DNA of 21,344 nucleotides, taken from contig JAYEOX010000008.1 of NCBI GenBank assembly GCA_034723415.1, positions 4,334 to 25,677 of the forward strand, in the 5' to 3' direction. This document shows, in pieces, positions 3,001-18,000 of the stretch. This stretch comes from Fidelibacterota bacterium. GTDB taxonomy: Bacteria > Fidelibacterota > Fidelibacteria > Fidelibacterales > Fidelibacteraceae. A program made the position numbers. Position 1 is the stretch's first letter, and the number at the start of each line of letters is the position of its first letter.

Positions 3001-6000
3001 TTCACGAGTATTTTTTGAAATCGAAAAAAGATCATTATATAAATTGCAATCAGAAAATGGACAATTATTTTTACCTAATGGACAAGTATTAATATCTACT
3101 TTACCATCTATTATTTCATGTATTTCGAGTAAATTTATTTTATTTGCCGGTTTGTTTAAAACAAATCCTCCGCTGGGACCTCTCAATGATTTTACAATTC
3201 CTGATTTTGAAAGTTGTTGGAATACTTTTGCAAGATGTGCTTCAGAAGCTTTGAGTTTTTTTGCTAAATATTTTATATTTAATCTTTTTGGATTATTAAT
3301 AGCGATTAAAGCGAGTCCGTGCATAGCAAGTGATGATCCTTCTGAGATATTTATTAACATTGACATATTTTTTACTCTCCAATTTATTATATTATCAATT
3401 CGGTATTAAAATACCTAAATATATAATGAATGTCAAGTATTAAATAAAAAATTTTCAAAAATATATTCTATGTCAATCTCTAGTGAAGATATTTTTAGAA
3501 GAAGAATTGATTAATGGTAAATAGGGAAAGTTACCATGTTTATCAATTGCTTATCGTGATAAGATAACATACAACAATAATTACAATCCACAAAATTTTT
3601 CAAAAAAAATGCTTGCAAATCACTTGTGAATATTATAACTTTCACAAGTTGACGATTAAAATAAAATGGAAATAATGAAAAATTTTCAAGAAAAAATATC
3701 CGAAGTTGTAATAAGAAGATTAACAGATTATCTGCGATGTCTCAATTATGTTAAAGGTGAGGGGCAAACATTAATAAAGTCAAGTGATATTTCTATAGAA
3801 TGTGGATTAAAATCATCTATTATAAGAAAAGACCTTTCTCGCTTTGGTATTATAGGTATGAAGGGAAGAGGATACGATGTTGATGAGTTGATCAAAGCGA
3901 TTGAAAAAATTCTCGGTTTAGATAAGACAAAAAATGTTGTGCTTGTTGGTGCCGGAAATTTAGGAACTGCAATAATTAAATATCAAGGAATAAAAAATGC
4001 AAATTTTGATTTTGTCGCTGTTTTCGATAATAATTCTGACAAAATTGGAAAGATGATTGACAAAACAAAAATATTATCTAGCGAAAAGTTGAATAATTTT
4101 ATAAAAGAAAATAAAATTGAAATAGTTTTACTTACAGTTCCAGCTTCAGAGACAATGAAAATTGTAGATAGTTTGGATTCGAAGTTTGTAAAAGGTATTC
4201 TAAATTTTACTTCCATAATTTTGCCACCAAAAAAGAATAATATTTTTATTCACAATATTGATCTTGCAAAAGAACTTGAAGTCGTTTCATATTGTATGAA
4301 AAATTGTTTATCATAATGGATAATATAAAAATAAAAAAAATAAAAAAAGGTTTGCTAATGAAAAAACTAAAACATTCGATACTTTTATTTTTAATAATGA
4401 TGTTTTTTTGGGTTTTATTTACCTCGCTTGATCAACAAGAACTTATTCTTGGTGCAATTGCATCATTTATAATTATGCTAATGACATTAAATTTAAAACC
4501 GGTTTTATCTGATGTAAAATTAAATCCGAAGTCAATTGTTTACAGCATCATTTATGTATTTGTTTTTATAGTTGCACTTATCAAGGCAAATTTTGATGTT
4601 GCTAAAAGAGTGATTTCACCAAAATTGCCAATAAATCCGGGAATTGTAAAGGTGAAAACAAAATTAAAAAGTCAAATTGGGAGAACAGTTTTAGCAAATT
4701 CAATAACTCTAACTCCCGGAACTTTAACTGTAGAAATGAAAGATGAATATTTTTATATTCATTGGATTGATGTAACGAGTAAAAATATTGATGGAGCAAC
4801 AAAATCAATTGTATCAAATTTTGAAAAATATTTGGAGGTAATCTTTGGCTAATATAATTAATAATATTTCTGTAATAATAGTACTGATTAGTATTGTTTT
4901 GACTTTTACAAGGATGGTGTTAGGTCCAACTGTTGCGGATAGAGCTGTTGCTTTAGATGGGATGACAATTATTGCAATTTCGTTAATTGCTTTTATTGCT
5001 TATTATTCCAATAGAATTATTTATCTTGATGTGGCAATTGTATATGCACTAATCAGTTTTATTGGTATAGTTGCGATAGCTCGCTATTTAGAAAGGGGGA
5101 TATGATGGAATTATTTGGAGCAATTATTACACTAATAGGATCAATTTTCCTATTTCTTGGAGCGCTCGGAATTTTTAGAATGCCTGATGTTTATAACAAA
5201 ATGCAAGCTGGAACAAAAGCAACTACTTTAGGAACAATACTTTTTTTATTTGGAATTTCTATTGGTCATTTAGAATGTGGGTGTTTCGGAAAAATCGTAA
5301 TTTTAATTTTGTTTGTTGTTTTTACTAATCCGGTTTCATCAAATGCATTAGCGAGAGCAGCTCATTTTTCCGGTATAAAACTCACAGATAAAACTGTAAA
5401 AGATGATTTAAAAAAAGATAATATTGAAAATGAAGGAGAAAAAATATGATCTCCGTAATAATAGTAGTAATTTTAGGGATTATAATGATGGTGGCTGGAG
5501 TAGTCGCTTTACATTTGAAAAATTTACTTGCAGCAATTATTACAGCAGGAGCTATTAGTTTATTGGCAAGTGTGATTTATCTAATTTTAGGTTCTCCTGA
5601 TGTTGCTATGACAGAAGCATCTATTGGTTCAGGACTTACAACAATTATTTTCCTTTATGCATTGAATAAAGTGAAAAAGGAGGATAAAAATGATTAAAAA
5701 AATATTTGTTATTCTCACAATGATTGGTTTGATAATGATGTTGTCATCACTTGTCTTAAATTTTGAATTTGTAGAACAATTGAATGATTTGTCTGCTGAT
5801 TATGTGACAGGTTCAATTGAAGATTTAAAATCGCAAAATGTCGTAACTTCTGTGATTGTCACATATCGTGGTTTGGATACACTTGGTGAAGTTACAGTTC
5901 TGTTTCTTGCAACTGCCGGAATTGGATTTTTATTAGGTAAACGAAAAGGGAAAAAACGAGTTGCTTCAGAGCTTTTGCAGACAAGTTCATCATTTCTTGT

Positions 6001-15000: not shown

Positions 15001-18000
15001 TTCGAAGGTGAAATGATAGTTGAATCAATTGGACAAGGAATGGACCTGTCTTATATTTCAGAAGATATTAAAAAAGGATTGAAATTCGGTCCTCGCGGAA
15101 GAATTCAAGTAAACGACAAATTCCAAACTGATTTGAAATGGTTATTTGTAGGTGGAGATATTATTCAAGGTCCTGATGTGATTACTGCAGTTGCAAACGG
15201 ACATATTGCTGCCAGAGCGATAGATAAATATTTAGAATAAAGGAGGAAATAATGTATTACAATGTTAGAGAAATAATAGAATATGCAATAAAAATTGAAA
15301 AAGAAAGTTATGCTTTTTATAATAATGCAGAGAAAAAAGTAAATGATAATGAAGTAAAAAAATTATTGATATTACTCGCTAATGAAGAGATTAATCATCA
15401 AAACAACTTAAAGGTTTTAATTGATGAAAATAGAGTTACAAAAGATGAATTAAATAAAAAAATGGATTTGGATAACACACTATTAAAAAAAATAGTAGGA
15501 ACATCTGAAATTTCTTCTAATGCGGATTTGTTAGAAATTCTCACAATCGCATTAGAAAGAGAAAAAAATACTGAGAATATTTATGCAATGTTAAGTACTT
15601 TATCAAATATTGATGAAGATATTATTGACATTTTTAGCAATTTAAAATTACAAGAAAACAGTCATGTGAAAAAAATCCAATCTCGTATCAACAAATTGAA
15701 ATAATAAAAAAACTCAAGGAGATGATAGTATGAAATTAAGCAAATTATTAGAAAATAAAACAAATGAAATTATCAAAATTGATTCAAATAAATCAGTATT
15801 TGAAGCAATTCAATTACTAAATAAACATAAAATTGGTTCACTTCTTGTAATGAATGAGAATAAAAAATTAGAAGGTATTATAACAGAGCGAGATATTTTA
15901 TTTAAATGTTTGGAAAACGAAAGGGATAATTACAAAACGAAAATTGCAGAAGTTATGACTTCAAAAGAAAAATTAATTATTGGAACTGCTGATGATAAAC
16001 TTTCTTATGCAATGAGAGTGATGGTAAGTAAAAAAGTTCGCCATTTACCAATTGTTGATAACGAAAATGTAATTGGATTGCTTTCAATTGGCGATATATT
16101 GAAAGAAGTTTTAGATCAATCGGAAACAGAAGTGAAATTATTGAGAGAATATGTTAAGAATCCTTACGGAATAAATTTATAATTGACAATGATAATAAAA
16201 TATTTTATATTTAGAACAATGAATTGTTGAAAAAGTAAGTTTTATTAGATTTTTAATTATAAATGATATAATTTTATGAATAAAAAAGAAAATATCAGTA
16301 AAATACTAAAAGCATTATCTCATCCCGATAGATTGGATATCGTAATTAATTTGTATCATAATGAATGTAGTGTTTCGAAATGTCAAAAAAGAATGAAGCT
16401 TCCGCAATCTACCATTTCTCAGCATTTAAAGACGATTATGGAAGCCGGAATTACTGAAAGAAGAAGAGAAGGAACAACGGTATGCTATAAAGTAGTAAAT
16501 AAATTTGTAATTGAATTAATTAAAATTATTGAAAAATAAAATTTTTTGGTCTTAAATATCGCAATATTCATATAGTTAAATATCTATATATTAGGAAAAA
16601 TAAATAAAAGCTTGACAAATCAATTTTTTATTTTTAAACTATAGGTAGAGATTGTGAACACAAACGCAAATAAGGGACAAAATGAGAATAAAACCAATAC
16701 CAGATGAAACAATAAGTCGCCTTTTCCCATACTTGAGGGCGCTTATTTGTCTCTCTGAAAAGAAAATTGATATTGTTTCATCTAACCATTTATCAGAAAT
16801 GTGTAATACAAATGCTTCCATGATTAGAAAAGATTTCTCTTTTTTTGGCGAATTTGGTAAAAGAGGTATTGGATATAATGTAGATAATCTTCTCGAAACA
16901 ATTCGAAATATTTTAAAAATGCAAGAGATAAAAAAAGTAGTGCTTATTGGTGTTGGTAATATAGGAAAAGCATTGTTATCTTATTCTAATTTCTATTCTG
17001 AAGGATATAATATTGTTGCAGCTTTTGATAATGATGAAAAAAAAATCGGTATAAAAATAAATGGTATAATTGTAGAAGATATAAAAGATGCAGAAAAAAC
17101 AATAAAAACTGAAAATATTAGAATATGTATACTTGCTACGCCCGTTTCTGAAACAAGTAAAGTTGCCAACAAGTTGGCGAATATGGGAATAAATGCTATT
17201 TTATCTTTTTCGCCGTGTCGAATAAATATGCCAAAAAATATTGAAGTTACTTGTATAGATTTAAGTACTGAACTTGCCAGATTAACATATTATTCATATA
17301 TTCATTCACAATGATAACGCTATGTTTTTGACAATATTTAATTGAAAAGGTTTTTAATAACAGATTAGGAGTAATCCAGAATGTCTAAAAAAAATTTCCC
17401 CTTTATAACAAAAGTTAAAAATTTTCTTTATCTTTTTATTTTTTTGTTAGTGATTTGGGTTATTTTGACTAATACTTGTAGAATTGAAGAATTACTTACA
17501 GGGATTTTAGTAAGTGTAATACTTGCACTAATTTTGAGTAAGAATTATCAAAAACTTGGTCTTCCTCCAATTGGAATAAAACGAATTATATATTTTATTA
17601 TTTTTATTTTTGTATTATTAAAGGAAATCATAAAAGCCAATTTTGATGTGGCGTATAGAGTGCTTCATCCGAAAATGCCAATTAAACCGGGAATTGTAGT
17701 AATAAAAACAGAATTGAAGCAGGATATCGCAAAAATGATACTTGCAAATTCTATTACTTTAACACCGGGGACATTTACACTTGATATTAAAGATGATGAA
17801 CTTCTTATTCATTGGATTTATGTCAGAACGAAAAAAAAAGAGGAATCCACAAGAGAAATTGGAGAAAGATTTGAAAAATACTTAAAGGTGGTGTTCGCAT
17901 GAGTGAAACAATAATTATTGTATTTTTGGGTATAATTGCTGTAGGCATTTTGCTAAGTTTGATTCGAATGATAATTGGACCGACCGCCTCAGATCGGGCT

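Follow-up and report, generated by a model that had tools for sequence, protein, structure and literature searches.

Two paralogous Rex-headed MBX/MBS-type gene clusters with an MbsN-flavoprotein fusion in a Fidelibacterota genome

The window analysed here, a 21,344-nucleotide stretch of a Fidelibacterota contig, contains two gene clusters that, on sequence comparison, encode bacterial representatives of the MBX/MBS family. In both, an Mrp-type ion-translocating membrane arm is predicted to be joined to a NuoB/C/D/H/I-type peripheral arm, and the ferredoxin-docking MbsN is replaced, as judged by homology, by a protein in which MbsN and an NfnB/GltD-type flavoprotein are joined head to tail. 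As first annotated, a rex gene stands at the head of each operon (Pfam, NCBIfam and synteny). Tentatively, we propose that the clusters encode Rex-derepressed, NADH-fed enzymes that would translocate ions while reducing an acceptor other than quinone, most likely sulfane sulfur (polysulfide). The fusion architecture is real and widespread, but it is not new. Of 151 genomes of the phylum, 28 have it as a single open reading frame, and so does every one of the 80 best loci from other phyla. The first-pass annotation cautioned that the adjacency might already appear in reviews, and the architecture is indeed in print for Thermotoga, whose mbx-like operons have NuoI replaced by a gltD-type flavoprotein and often close with rubrerythrin (Degli Esposti 2015; PMC4758237). 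What is added here is the replacement of the NADPH-type YRR motif, two paralogue types unlike in their vestigial cysteines, a lineage-restricted rex linkage and two distinct conserved operators.

Operon 1 occupies positions 3666-15240 and consists of rex and 12 co-directional genes, all on the forward strand and close-set or overlapping, which by Pfam and synteny are collinear with Pyrococcus furiosus mbsABCDEGHH'MJKLN. The range originally assigned, 3675..15240, covers this operon and leaves out the second; it begins at the second in-frame ATG of the rex1 reading frame, which opens at 3666. The redox-sensing repressor gene rex1 (3666..4316; 216 aa; Put_DNA-bind_N and CoA_binding) is followed by those of six small Mrp-type membrane subunits, MbsA/MnhE (4292-4852; MNHE), MbsB/MrpF (4845-5105; MrpF_PhaF), MbsC/MnhG (5102-5449; PhaG_MnhG_YufB), MbsD (5446-5697; MbhD), MbsE/MnhB (5690-6361; MbhE and MnhB) and the NuoK-like MbsG (6361-6714; Oxidored_q2). 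Among 80 related loci, 45 keep this order and the remaining 35 are truncated by an end. A fused MbsH-MbsH' antiporter-like subunit of 1037 aa (6708..9821) has two Proton_antipo_M stretches and matches an NCBIfam NuoN-like model at 4-452 and a NuoM/L-like model at 447-1035. The NuoH-like membrane anchor MbsM (9823..10734; NADHdh, E 5e-46), the NuoB-like MbsJ with the proximal [4Fe-4S] cluster (10744..11385), the NuoC-like MbsK (11442..12020; Complex1_30kDa) and the NuoD-like MbsL (12093..13340) come next; the start codon of the last is uncertain, as the TTG that opens its reading frame probably lies too far upstream. The operon ends with the MbsN-flavoprotein fusion (13447..15240; 597 aa). Downstream on the same strand lie the genes for a rubrerythrin/ferritin-like di-iron protein (15252..15704; 150 aa; Rubrerythrin, E 1e-9), in which no rubredoxin domain was found, a CBS-pair protein (15730..16182; 150 aa; two CBS domains) and, between both operons, an ArsR-family regulator (16276..16539; HTH_5), whose position after the CBS gene is also kept in relative L031.

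Operon 2 starts with rex2 (16682..17314, forward strand; 210 aa; Pfam and NCBIfam Rex), followed on the same strand by genes A, B, C, D, E, G and H, from MnhE to a 494-aa antiporter-like subunit (17381..21309; Pfam), with 71-88% identity to the type-2 operons of four relatives (L026, L027, L028 and L033). The contig end cuts the H' gene after 13 codons (21306..21344, forward strand), and their product, MSLELLLIIAFGG, matches MSLELLIMFAFGG, the N-terminus of H' in L028. Contig C10 carries at its edge the last 105 residues of this protein (74% identical), followed by NuoH, NuoB, NuoC, NuoD (366 aa), a 621-aa fusion and a CBS protein paralogous to the one behind operon 1; no rubrerythrin-like gene was found in this downstream part. 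The same gene order is contiguous in the four relatives, and the earlier observation that the second operon is divided between two contigs holds. The two operons are old paralogues by sequence divergence (N subunits 49%, L subunits 43% and Rex proteins 36% identical), and H and H' form one reading frame in all type-1 relatives and two genes in type 2.

The previous assignment of both complexes as NiFe-less, Mrp-linked and of Mbx/MBS type is borne out by synteny, by Pfam and NCBIfam models and by comparison with solved structures. For every core subunit tested, the best match among solved structures is MBS of P. furiosus (PDB 6U8Y), the membrane-bound sulfane sulfur reductase once called MBX; L, J and N place it first by a wide margin, with E-values of 8e-95 (operon 1) and 4e-100 for L, 2e-64 (operon 1) and 7e-66 for J, and 4e-22 for N. 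The operon 1 L subunit scores 321 bits against 6u8y_L versus 200 against the complex I 49-kDa subunit and 159 against MbhL. The 13-subunit gene order and the two antiporter-like subunits are shared with MBS. Residue alignment found neither the [NiFe] site nor the quinone-binding His and Tyr in either complex; in a gap-free alignment of operon 1 L to MbsL, T65 and V114 stand at the positions of the complex I quinone ligands, which MbsL also lacks (MBS paper). The NuoD-like subunits had been described as having lost the [NiFe] cysteines. The CxxC pairs are absent, but operon 1 keeps one cysteine of each pair, C113 in RICVPEPD and C409 in HTCPPEIER, which are the two vestigial cysteines of MbsL (C85 and C385); both are gone from operon 2 (RINVVEPD and VVAPEIDR). 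Family-wide, the first site has 44 Cys versus 22 Ala/Ser and the second 44 Cys versus 32 Tyr, a variation that fits the non-catalytic role reported for these cysteines in MBS (MBS paper).

The NuoB-like subunit of operon 1 has just three cysteines for the proximal cluster (C64, C129 and C159), which would leave one iron open. MbsJ likewise holds this cluster by three cysteines, and the open iron is its proposed catalytic site. Even the non-ligating C25 of MbsJ is replaced here, by G61, and a cysteine at this position is missing in 61 of 62 readable family members. The acceptor, left open in the first-pass annotation, can thus be narrowed to one compatible with MBS-like pocket subunits without quinone ligands or NiFe site. 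Other differences from MBS are the fusion of N to a 450-residue NfnB-type flavoprotein, the single H-H' protein of operon 1, the bacterial host and the rex control. Complex I shares homologous B, C, D, H, I, K and antiporter-like subunits, and in both NADH would feed an FeS chain ending at the NuoB cluster; unlike complex I, the present clusters lack NuoE, F, G and quinone ligands, have a nucleotide module of FAD/GltD type rather than FMN/NuoF type, and include a full Mrp module.

The fusion of NuoI/MbsN to a complete NfnB/SudA/GltD-type flavoprotein, previously noted in both operons, was recovered as a single reading frame in each by Pfam, NCBIfam and structure matches. The domain limits given for the 597-aa protein also stand (Fer4_20 at 162-263 and Pyr_redox_2 at 284-580, with Fer4_7 at 46-101). 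Residues 6-150 match 6u8y_N and residues 151-596 match T. maritima NfnB (4ylf_B); MbsN homology stops at residue 150 and NfnB homology starts at 148-151, leaving zero spacer. The full-length NCBIfam model NF010590, which carries the name 'putative oxidoreductase', matches residues 3-596, and the AF2 model has a pLDDT of 81 and a pTM of 0.78. Around the junction, 58 sequences show little or no variation at P123, G136, R150, M153, R161, S164, F165 and E167. The alignment of residues 150-597 with the large subunit of NfnAB/SudAB (NADH-dependent ferredoxin:NADP+ oxidoreductase; E 1e-78 to T. maritima NfnB and 1e-73 to P. furiosus NfnI-L) runs over the full length, and the eight cluster-ligand cysteines and E238 are shared with it, as are the FAD and NAD(P)H glycine motifs. 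Unlike NfnB, the flavoprotein is joined to a complex-I-type subunit. All four aligned solved chains of NfnB type have YRR ahead of xxEMPA; here T-[S/A/C]-L-E stands in its place, preceded by an insertion of a few residues (T-T-S-L-E in the 597-aa protein). At this site, 66 of 72 readable relatives have x-L-E and five have YRR. By general Rossmann-fold rules, the missing motif would make NADH the more likely cofactor, rather than NADPH. Operon 1 resembles Thermotoga maritima MBX in its gltD-related flavoprotein and terminal rubrerythrin. The two differ in that NuoI is, by the paper's description, 'substituted' there while its domain is kept here as the N-terminal 150 residues, and in the phylum and the presence of two paralogous operons. 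A literature search gave no report of rex linkage for the Thermotoga operon.

Rex1 belongs to NCBIfam Rex subfamily NF003995 (219 bits versus a cut-off of 126) and keeps the IRKDL recognition motif and GxGNxG; Rex2 also scores above the NCBIfam Rex cut-off (233 bits). No further rex gene was found in the whole genome, and both proteins are local, operon-heading paralogues, unlike those of known Rex regulons. The candidate rex1 operator is a 24-bp palindrome TTGTGAA-N10-TTCACAA (3624..3647) located 19 nt upstream of the gene; nowhere else in the 1.94-Mb genome does this form occur without a mismatch. A perfect palindrome, TTGTGAAAGTTATAACTTTCACAA, is found at the equivalent position upstream of the rex1 orthologues in L029, L030 and L032, while in L021 its left half is degenerate; the intergenic DNA of these four is dissimilar outside it. 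A Rex-box-like site, TTGTGAACACAAACGCAA (16652..16669), lies 13 nt upstream of rex2 and has three mismatches to the Rex regulon operator TTGTGAANNNNTTCACAA (Ravcheev 2012, as quoted in PMC6391272); L026, L028 and L033 have TTGTGAACACAATCACAA and near variants there, with one or two mismatches. The rex2 site has canonical spacing, whereas the rex1 palindrome shares the half-sites but has a spacer of 10 nt instead of 4, and Rex binding to it is assumed. The rex linkage is lineage-restricted: rex lies beside the operon in 8 of 13 loci of the phylum and in none of 27 loci of other lineages whose upstream sequence extends for 900 nt or more. Its absence from those 27 loci and from the other 5 of the phylum counts against the proposed reading.

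NAD(P)H is a plausible donor in place of ferredoxin, and such a donor fits both the control by rex and the fact that MbsN no longer exists as a separate protein. The choice of polysulfide is consistent with the 4.4-fold rise of T. maritima mbxA on S0 by qRT-PCR reported in PMC9431562; against it, the Cloacimonadota paper does not report sulfur reduction for that group. The [4Fe-4S] chain of NfnB forms the low-potential branch of Nfn, and a chain of this type may be unable to take electrons from NADH without bifurcation. At standard potentials NADH is about 160 mV more positive than ferredoxin. Electron flow from ferredoxin to polysulfide yields 42 kJ/mol per two electrons (JBC review). Starting from NADH, roughly 10-12 kJ/mol would be left, and less at physiological NADH/NAD+, so the energetics are thin. 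MBH lives on about this much energy.

An unlikely alternative is that ferredoxin feeds the FeS chain and the fused flavoprotein reduces NAD(P)+ while ions are pumped, as in Rnf. Models employing ferredoxin are those published for the Thermotoga and Mesotoga homologues, the Mesotoga preprint describing Mbx as an NADP:ferredoxin oxidoreductase exporting Na+, and the span from ferredoxin to NAD+ would supply ample energy. However, this model predates the demonstration of polysulfide reduction at the proximal cluster of MBS, and electrons passing from ferredoxin to FAD would skip the J/L/M pocket, the place of coupling in the superfamily. The MbsN domain, the usual ferredoxin dock, now adjoins the flavoprotein, and Rex derepression at high NADH would have the wrong sign for an NADH-producing enzyme. 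The genome also has an RnfD/NqrB homologue elsewhere (C115), which could cover ferredoxin:NAD+ exchange.

It is likewise doubtful that the complexes serve another partner or acceptor, either by reverse electron flow driven by the ion gradient or by exchange between NAD(P)H and a soluble protein, such as the di-iron rubrerythrin-like protein here or a DHO_dh-like FMN protein in Bacteroidota, with the membrane arm modulating or energising the reaction. GltD/SudA-type proteins are usually paired with a second catalytic subunit, and among the 80 related loci a rubrerythrin-like gene follows N in 13 (as it does in 5 loci sampled from the phylum), a CBS gene lies downstream of N in 26 and a DHO_dh-like gene follows in 35. 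The DHO_dh-like protein is a hint that electrons may take a different route in those lineages; together with N it contains all domain types of dihydropyrimidine dehydrogenase. The marginal energetics of NADH-to-polysulfide transfer also favour this alternative. Yet no DHO_dh-like homologue was found in this genome at E 1e-3, operon 2 is without the rubrerythrin-like gene, and the family-wide conservation of MBS-like pocket features argues that the pocket is in use. Flavin-based bifurcation or confurcation, in which an NfnB-type FAD would divide the electrons of NAD(P)H between ferredoxin and the acceptor of the membrane arm, or would draw on both donors together, is improbable: the nearest solved relatives of the flavoprotein half do bifurcate (NfnB 4ylf_B and 5jca_L; NfnB-like 8oh5_C and 9bov_A) and the cluster ligands and E238 are invariant, but both operons lack an NfnA/SudB-type partner, the single PF10418 protein of the genome lies in a separate gene cluster on C6, and the sole FeS branch of the flavoprotein runs into the MbsN domain, leaving no second branch evident.

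In the NADH-fed reading that we favour, NADH would deliver two electrons to FAD, from which they would pass singly through the two [4Fe-4S] clusters of the flavoprotein N-terminal domain and the two clusters of the MbsN domain to the NuoB-like proximal cluster. There they would reduce a hydrophobic acceptor other than a quinone or a proton, by analogy with P. furiosus MBS most likely sulfane sulfur, and the reduction would power the export of H+/Na+ by way of the Mrp module and both antiporter-like subunits. As each operon has its own Rex and a conserved operator, the complexes would be made when NADH/NAD+ is high.

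Operon 1 consists of 13 closely packed genes in one direction (window 3666-15240) in a stretch of about 30% G+C (contig C8, positions 4334-25677), the genome being 1.94 Mb in 182 contigs and an estimated 94% complete. The genes encode, in order, Rex, MnhE, MrpF, MnhG, MbhD, MbhE/MnhB, a NuoK-like protein, a 1037-aa double antiporter-like protein, NuoH, NuoB, NuoC, a NuoD-like protein and a 597-aa fusion protein with a 2x[4Fe-4S] region at residues 46-101, Fer4_20 at 162-263 and Pyr_redox_2 at 284-580. With the subunits lettered after P. furiosus mbsABCDEGHH'MJKLN, this is the P. 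furiosus-type order A-B-C-D-E-G-H-H'-M-J-K-L-N, a Mrp module with homologues of NuoH, NuoB, NuoC, NuoD and NuoI, with the difference that operon 1 has H and H' as one protein. Next, 3' of operon 1, come genes for a rubrerythrin-like, a CBS-pair and an ArsR protein in that order. The listed NuoD-like (L) ORF opens with TTG about 40-50 codons 5' of the MbsL homology (window 12093-12170); translation probably begins at an ATG further inside, since relatives align only from residue 16-32 onward. Divergent from rex1, on the minus strand of window 244-3366, are three genes, for a Rrf2-family regulator (2950-3366), a ChaN-like haem-binding protein (1979-2902) and a 566-aa DUF1858 and DUF2249 protein (244-1944). 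Scans for sigma-70 promoters and terminators gave results no better than shuffles.

Operon 2 opens with rex from 16682; its paralogous genes A-B-C-D-E-G-H come next, and then H' from 21306, of which 13 codons precede the contig end. The final 105 residues of H' open contig C10, and after them come NuoH, NuoB, NuoC, a 366-aa NuoD, a 621-aa fusion protein and a CBS gene. The first-pass annotation had carried the second operon over from one contig to the other, and this join is sound because both H' ends match the H' of the related locus L028 (the 13 codons at its N-terminus, the C10 part with 74% identity) and the full order is unbroken in four relatives (L026, L027, L028 and L033). About 1.5 kb of H' is unassembled between the contigs.

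Judged by gene order and by comparison of the subunits against all solved chains, both clusters are MBX/MBS-type complexes. The L subunit of operon 1 matches P. furiosus MbsL (6u8y_L) with an E value of 8e-95 and 321 bits, against 200 bits for the complex I 49-kDa subunit and 159 bits for MbhL, and the L subunit of operon 2 matches MbsL with 4e-100. The NuoB-like J subunits match MbsJ with 2e-64 (operon 1) and 7e-66 (operon 2), and for the match of fusion residues 6-150 to MbsN the value is 4e-22. The P. furiosus MBS/MBX is a polysulfide/DMTS reductase, whose activity is coupled to a Na+ gradient, and takes up electrons from ferredoxin through a free-standing MbsN, whereas both operons here have N joined to a flavoprotein. 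A complex I is rejected by the lack of NuoE, NuoF and NuoG in either operon and of quinone ligands, and a group 4 hydrogenase (Mbh/Ech) by the absence from L of CxxC pairs and so of the full set of four NiFe-site Cys ligands.

The residues of L and J around the acceptor pocket can be compared with those of MBS. According to the MBS structure paper and review (PMC7684303, PMC8165549), two of the four NiFe cysteines of MBS (C85 and C385) remain and are non-catalytic, quinone ligands equivalent to Nqo4 H38 and Y87 are absent, and in MbsJ only C28, C93 and C123 ligate the proximal cluster, the free iron being the proposed site of polysulfide reduction. An L subunit was counted as MBS-like when it had no two CxxC pairs and kept at most one Cys of each. 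The counterparts of MbsL C85 and C385 in the alignment are C113 and C409 in operon 1 L and are absent from operon 2 L. Alignment with the complex I 49-kDa subunit and with MbsL places T65 and V114 (operon 1) and Val and Val (operon 2) at the quinone His and Tyr positions, and a quinone reductase is rejected on this ground; the genome has two UbiA-family genes, however, and may make prenylquinones. Operon 1 J has G61 at the position of MbsJ C25, with only C64, C129 and C159 as candidate ligands of the proximal [4Fe-4S] cluster, and operon 2 J keeps the CxxC, as in MbsJ. Among the best 80 related loci of the wider collection, the C25 equivalent is missing in 61 of 62 readable J proteins; the first vestigial site of L is Cys in 44 and Ala or Ser in 22, and the second Cys in 44 and Tyr in 32. 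Since the one feature is nearly constant and the other variable, the alignments indicate that the three-Cys pattern of J is the conserved trait and that the vestigial cysteines of L are dispensable, which agrees with the mutagenesis result for MBS.

In the fusion protein, the MbsN homology ends at residue 150 and the NfnB homology starts at 148-151, with no spacer between the halves. The flavoprotein half matches T. maritima NfnB (4ylf_B, E 1e-78) and P. furiosus NfnI-L (5jca_L, E 1e-73) and has the features of NfnB, SudA and GltD, that is, the two-cluster Fer4_20 domain and the Rossmann domains for FAD and NAD(P)H. An AlphaFold2 model of the fusion has a mean pLDDT of 81 and a pTM of 0.78 and is weakest at residues 1-35 and about 110-140. 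At the junction, several residues vary little or not at all among 58 aligned sequences that include both paralogue types, which suggests a single origin of the fusion and a fixed interface. Both fusions score below the curated 946-bit cut-off of NF010590 (PRK13984, 'putative oxidoreductase'), an NCBIfam full-length model of 611 positions, with 871 bits for operon 1 (residues 3-596, model 8-606) and 694 bits for operon 2; one of 14 control genomes passes this cut-off.

The nucleotide-binding motif bears on the electron donor. As a general rule for Rossmann folds, Arg-Arg goes with NADPH, whose 2'-phosphate it suits, and an acidic residue goes with NADH. All four aligned solved NfnB-like chains have YRR after the second Rossmann strand, ahead of xxEMPA; at the YRR position the operon 1 fusion has TTSLE after a short insertion and the operon 2 fusion has IVSLE. 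The motif is x-L-E in 66 of 72 readable relatives and YRR in 5, the remaining one being a mis-hit of the pattern. No NfnA/SudB-type small subunit is adjacent in either operon, and the only PF10418 protein of the genome is encoded on contig C6. The phylum sample also has a third fusion form, type 1b (L023, L024, L025 and L035), which is 44-51% identical; the two of these placed in the alignment of fusion proteins, L023 and the truncated L035, keep the NADPH-type YRR and lack the insertion.

The fusion is a full-length single ORF in 28 of the 151 sampled phylum genomes, as counted from the listing, with copies cut at contig ends in 5 further genomes and two fusion types together in 7; its occurrence as a single ORF in these 28 genomes and in the best 80 loci rules out an assembly chimera or a frameshift as its source. 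Two of the four other sampled genomes of the same genus show no full-length copy and match only the flavoprotein half. The nearest named homologues are from Cloacimonadota MAGs (88% identity in one search and 84% in another), which makes that phylum the probable one of the host, and the best 120 database homologues all have 590-610 aa, at least 99% query coverage and 67-88% identity, with no names other than 'FAD-dependent oxidoreductase' or 'glutamate synthase small chain'. Among the matches listed for one-genome-per-species contigs, at least 568 of 599 candidate stretches encode relatives. The best 80 of these (at least 568) loci come from Bacteroidales, Marinilabiliales, Cloacimonadota, Neomarinimicrobiota, Spirochaetia, Chlorobiota, Aminicenantes, Halanaerobiales and others, including Prolixibacter denitrificans DSM 27267, and the complete A-to-N order is found in 45, the remaining 35 being cut by an end. 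The fusion occurs patchily and may have been passed between phyla. The type-1 fusion of the window is 72% identical to some Bacteroidota copies, versus 62-67% to those in its family's other genera.

The most parsimonious reading is that NADH would reduce the FAD of the fused flavoprotein, from which electrons would pass through four [4Fe-4S] clusters to the three-Cys proximal cluster and then to a hydrophobic acceptor that would be neither quinone nor proton, with ion export coupled to acceptor reduction and the complex expressed at high NADH. Sulfane sulfur is the acceptor favoured by homology alone. The energetics of this NADH-fed reading are marginal. With NADH in place of ferredoxin, an estimate from standard potentials would leave about as much free energy as MBH has. 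PMC8165549 gives 42 kJ/mol per two electrons for ferredoxin-fed MBS, against 12 kJ/mol for MBH.

The fused-complex family may instead work with a second partner. A protein like dihydroorotate dehydrogenase (NCBIfam NF005741, 426 bits) is encoded directly 3' of N in 35 of the 80 loci, and all the domain types of dihydropyrimidine dehydrogenase are then present, split between N and this protein; against this, the genome of the window has no homologue of it. It is an FMN protein of about 327 aa that is seen in Bacteroidota and Chlorobiota-type loci (e.g., L057 11830-12822; L060, of P. denitrificans, 12014-12997). An alternative in print is that electrons pass from ferredoxin to NAD(P)+; the gltD-type subunit of Thermotoga is taken as the NAD(P)+-reducing site (PMC4758237), and a Mesotoga preprint presents Mbx as a NADP:ferredoxin oxidoreductase. 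This direction seems less probable here, as it would skip the coupling pocket, duplicate the function of the RnfD/NqrB-containing complex on contig C115 and have the wrong sign for control by Rex.

The two Rex proteins are both above the NCBIfam Rex cut-offs, with a winged-helix N-domain and a Rossmann domain for NAD(H), and the IRKD(L/F) helix and GxGNxG motif are conserved in both. The identity between the two proteins is 36%, and a search of the genome found no rex gene beyond these two. The consensus Rex operator is TTGTGAANNNNTTCACAA, as quoted in PMC6391272. The candidate operator upstream of rex1 is a 24-bp palindrome, TTGTGAATATTATAACTTTCACAA (window 3624-3647), which has perfect half-sites of this consensus and a spacer of 10 nt versus 4. 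A perfect form, TTGTGAAAGTTATAACTTTCACAA, stands at the equivalent place in L029, L030 and L032, and its left half is degenerate in L021; the surrounding intergenic DNA is otherwise unlike. The candidate upstream of rex2, TTGTGAACACAAACGCAA (16652-16669), has canonical spacing and three mismatches to the consensus, and boxes with 1-2 mismatches occupy the equivalent place in L026, L028 and L033. Going by these sites, Rex1-type paralogues may read an operator of a different geometry from that of Rex2-type ones. No box with at most two mismatches occurs within the window, the seven sites with three mismatches are equalled or exceeded in 10 of 100 shuffles, and two-mismatch sites genome-wide resemble the AT-rich background; the two candidates are credible only because they are conserved across genomes. 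In the small phylum sample, rex heads 5 of 9 type-1 and 3 of 4 type-2 loci (relatives of operons 1 and 2), and the three type-1b loci with enough upstream sequence (L023, L024 and L025) lack it. None of the 27 loci of the wider collection whose flank upstream of gene A is 900 nt or longer has rex at its head.

A small CBS-pair protein is encoded 3' of both operons (window 15730-16182; C10 514-900) and downstream of N in 26 of the 80 related loci, and could serve to sense nucleotides, as an accessory or a regulator. Elsewhere in the genome, contig C6 (420-6418) carries a third complex-I-like module with a true NiFe-type large subunit (399 aa, NiFeSe_Hases match), 5' of which are genes for an AsrA-like Fer4_22 protein and an AsrB/SudB-like FAD/NAD-binding protein with a DHODB Fe-S domain, which points to a membrane hydrogenase with an additional, nucleotide-linked input module. 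On contig C79 (1119-8321), NuoE-like and NuoF-like genes and a 705-aa fusion of Fer2_4, Fer4 and GltD-type parts adjoin genes for ferredoxin and 2-oxoacid:ferredoxin oxidoreductase, and this set looks like a Bfu/NfnABC-type bifurcating module.

This kind of complex is already known, and the window adds another member and some new detail. Thermotoga's mbx-like operon often has rubrerythrin at its end, and its NuoD retains vestigial Cys (PMC4758237). In T. maritima, mbxA is up 4.4-fold on S0 and MBX is modelled as a ferredoxin-dependent sulfur reductase, according to PMC9431562; the Cloacimonadota paper PMC8542988 does not use the term 'Mbx'. Besides PMC4758237, no other description of this fusion was found, nor any of Rex together with Mbx, in a literature search that mostly did not extend to subscription journals. 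The first-pass annotation, which had seen two Rex-headed Mbx-type operons with a flavoprotein-fused NuoI and proposed that NAD(P)H feeds them, made a real and well-described observation with a reasonable interpretation that is new only in part.

We tentatively propose, as a view that is possible and still rather doubtful, a widespread 'quinone-free complex I analogue', in which an MBS-type chassis gained a GltD/NfnB-type FAD module for NADH independently of NuoEFG. It would be an NADH-driven, ion-pumping reductase of sulfane sulfur or another acceptor in anaerobic Cloacimonadota, Bacteroidota, Marinimicrobia, Spirochaetota and Thermotogota, switched on here by dedicated Rex paralogues, one of them with a new operator of 10-nt spacer. 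Because there are cultured carriers, P. denitrificans and, according to the literature, T. maritima, the NADH-fed reading is directly testable. For genome annotation, it concerns a subunit that now goes under one or other of the two names of its database homologues. Should an MBS-type pump really be fed by NADH, a way of conserving energy during NADH re-oxidation would have gone unrecognised in many fermentative anaerobes, and a second, independent NADH module would have been added onto the ancestor of complex I.
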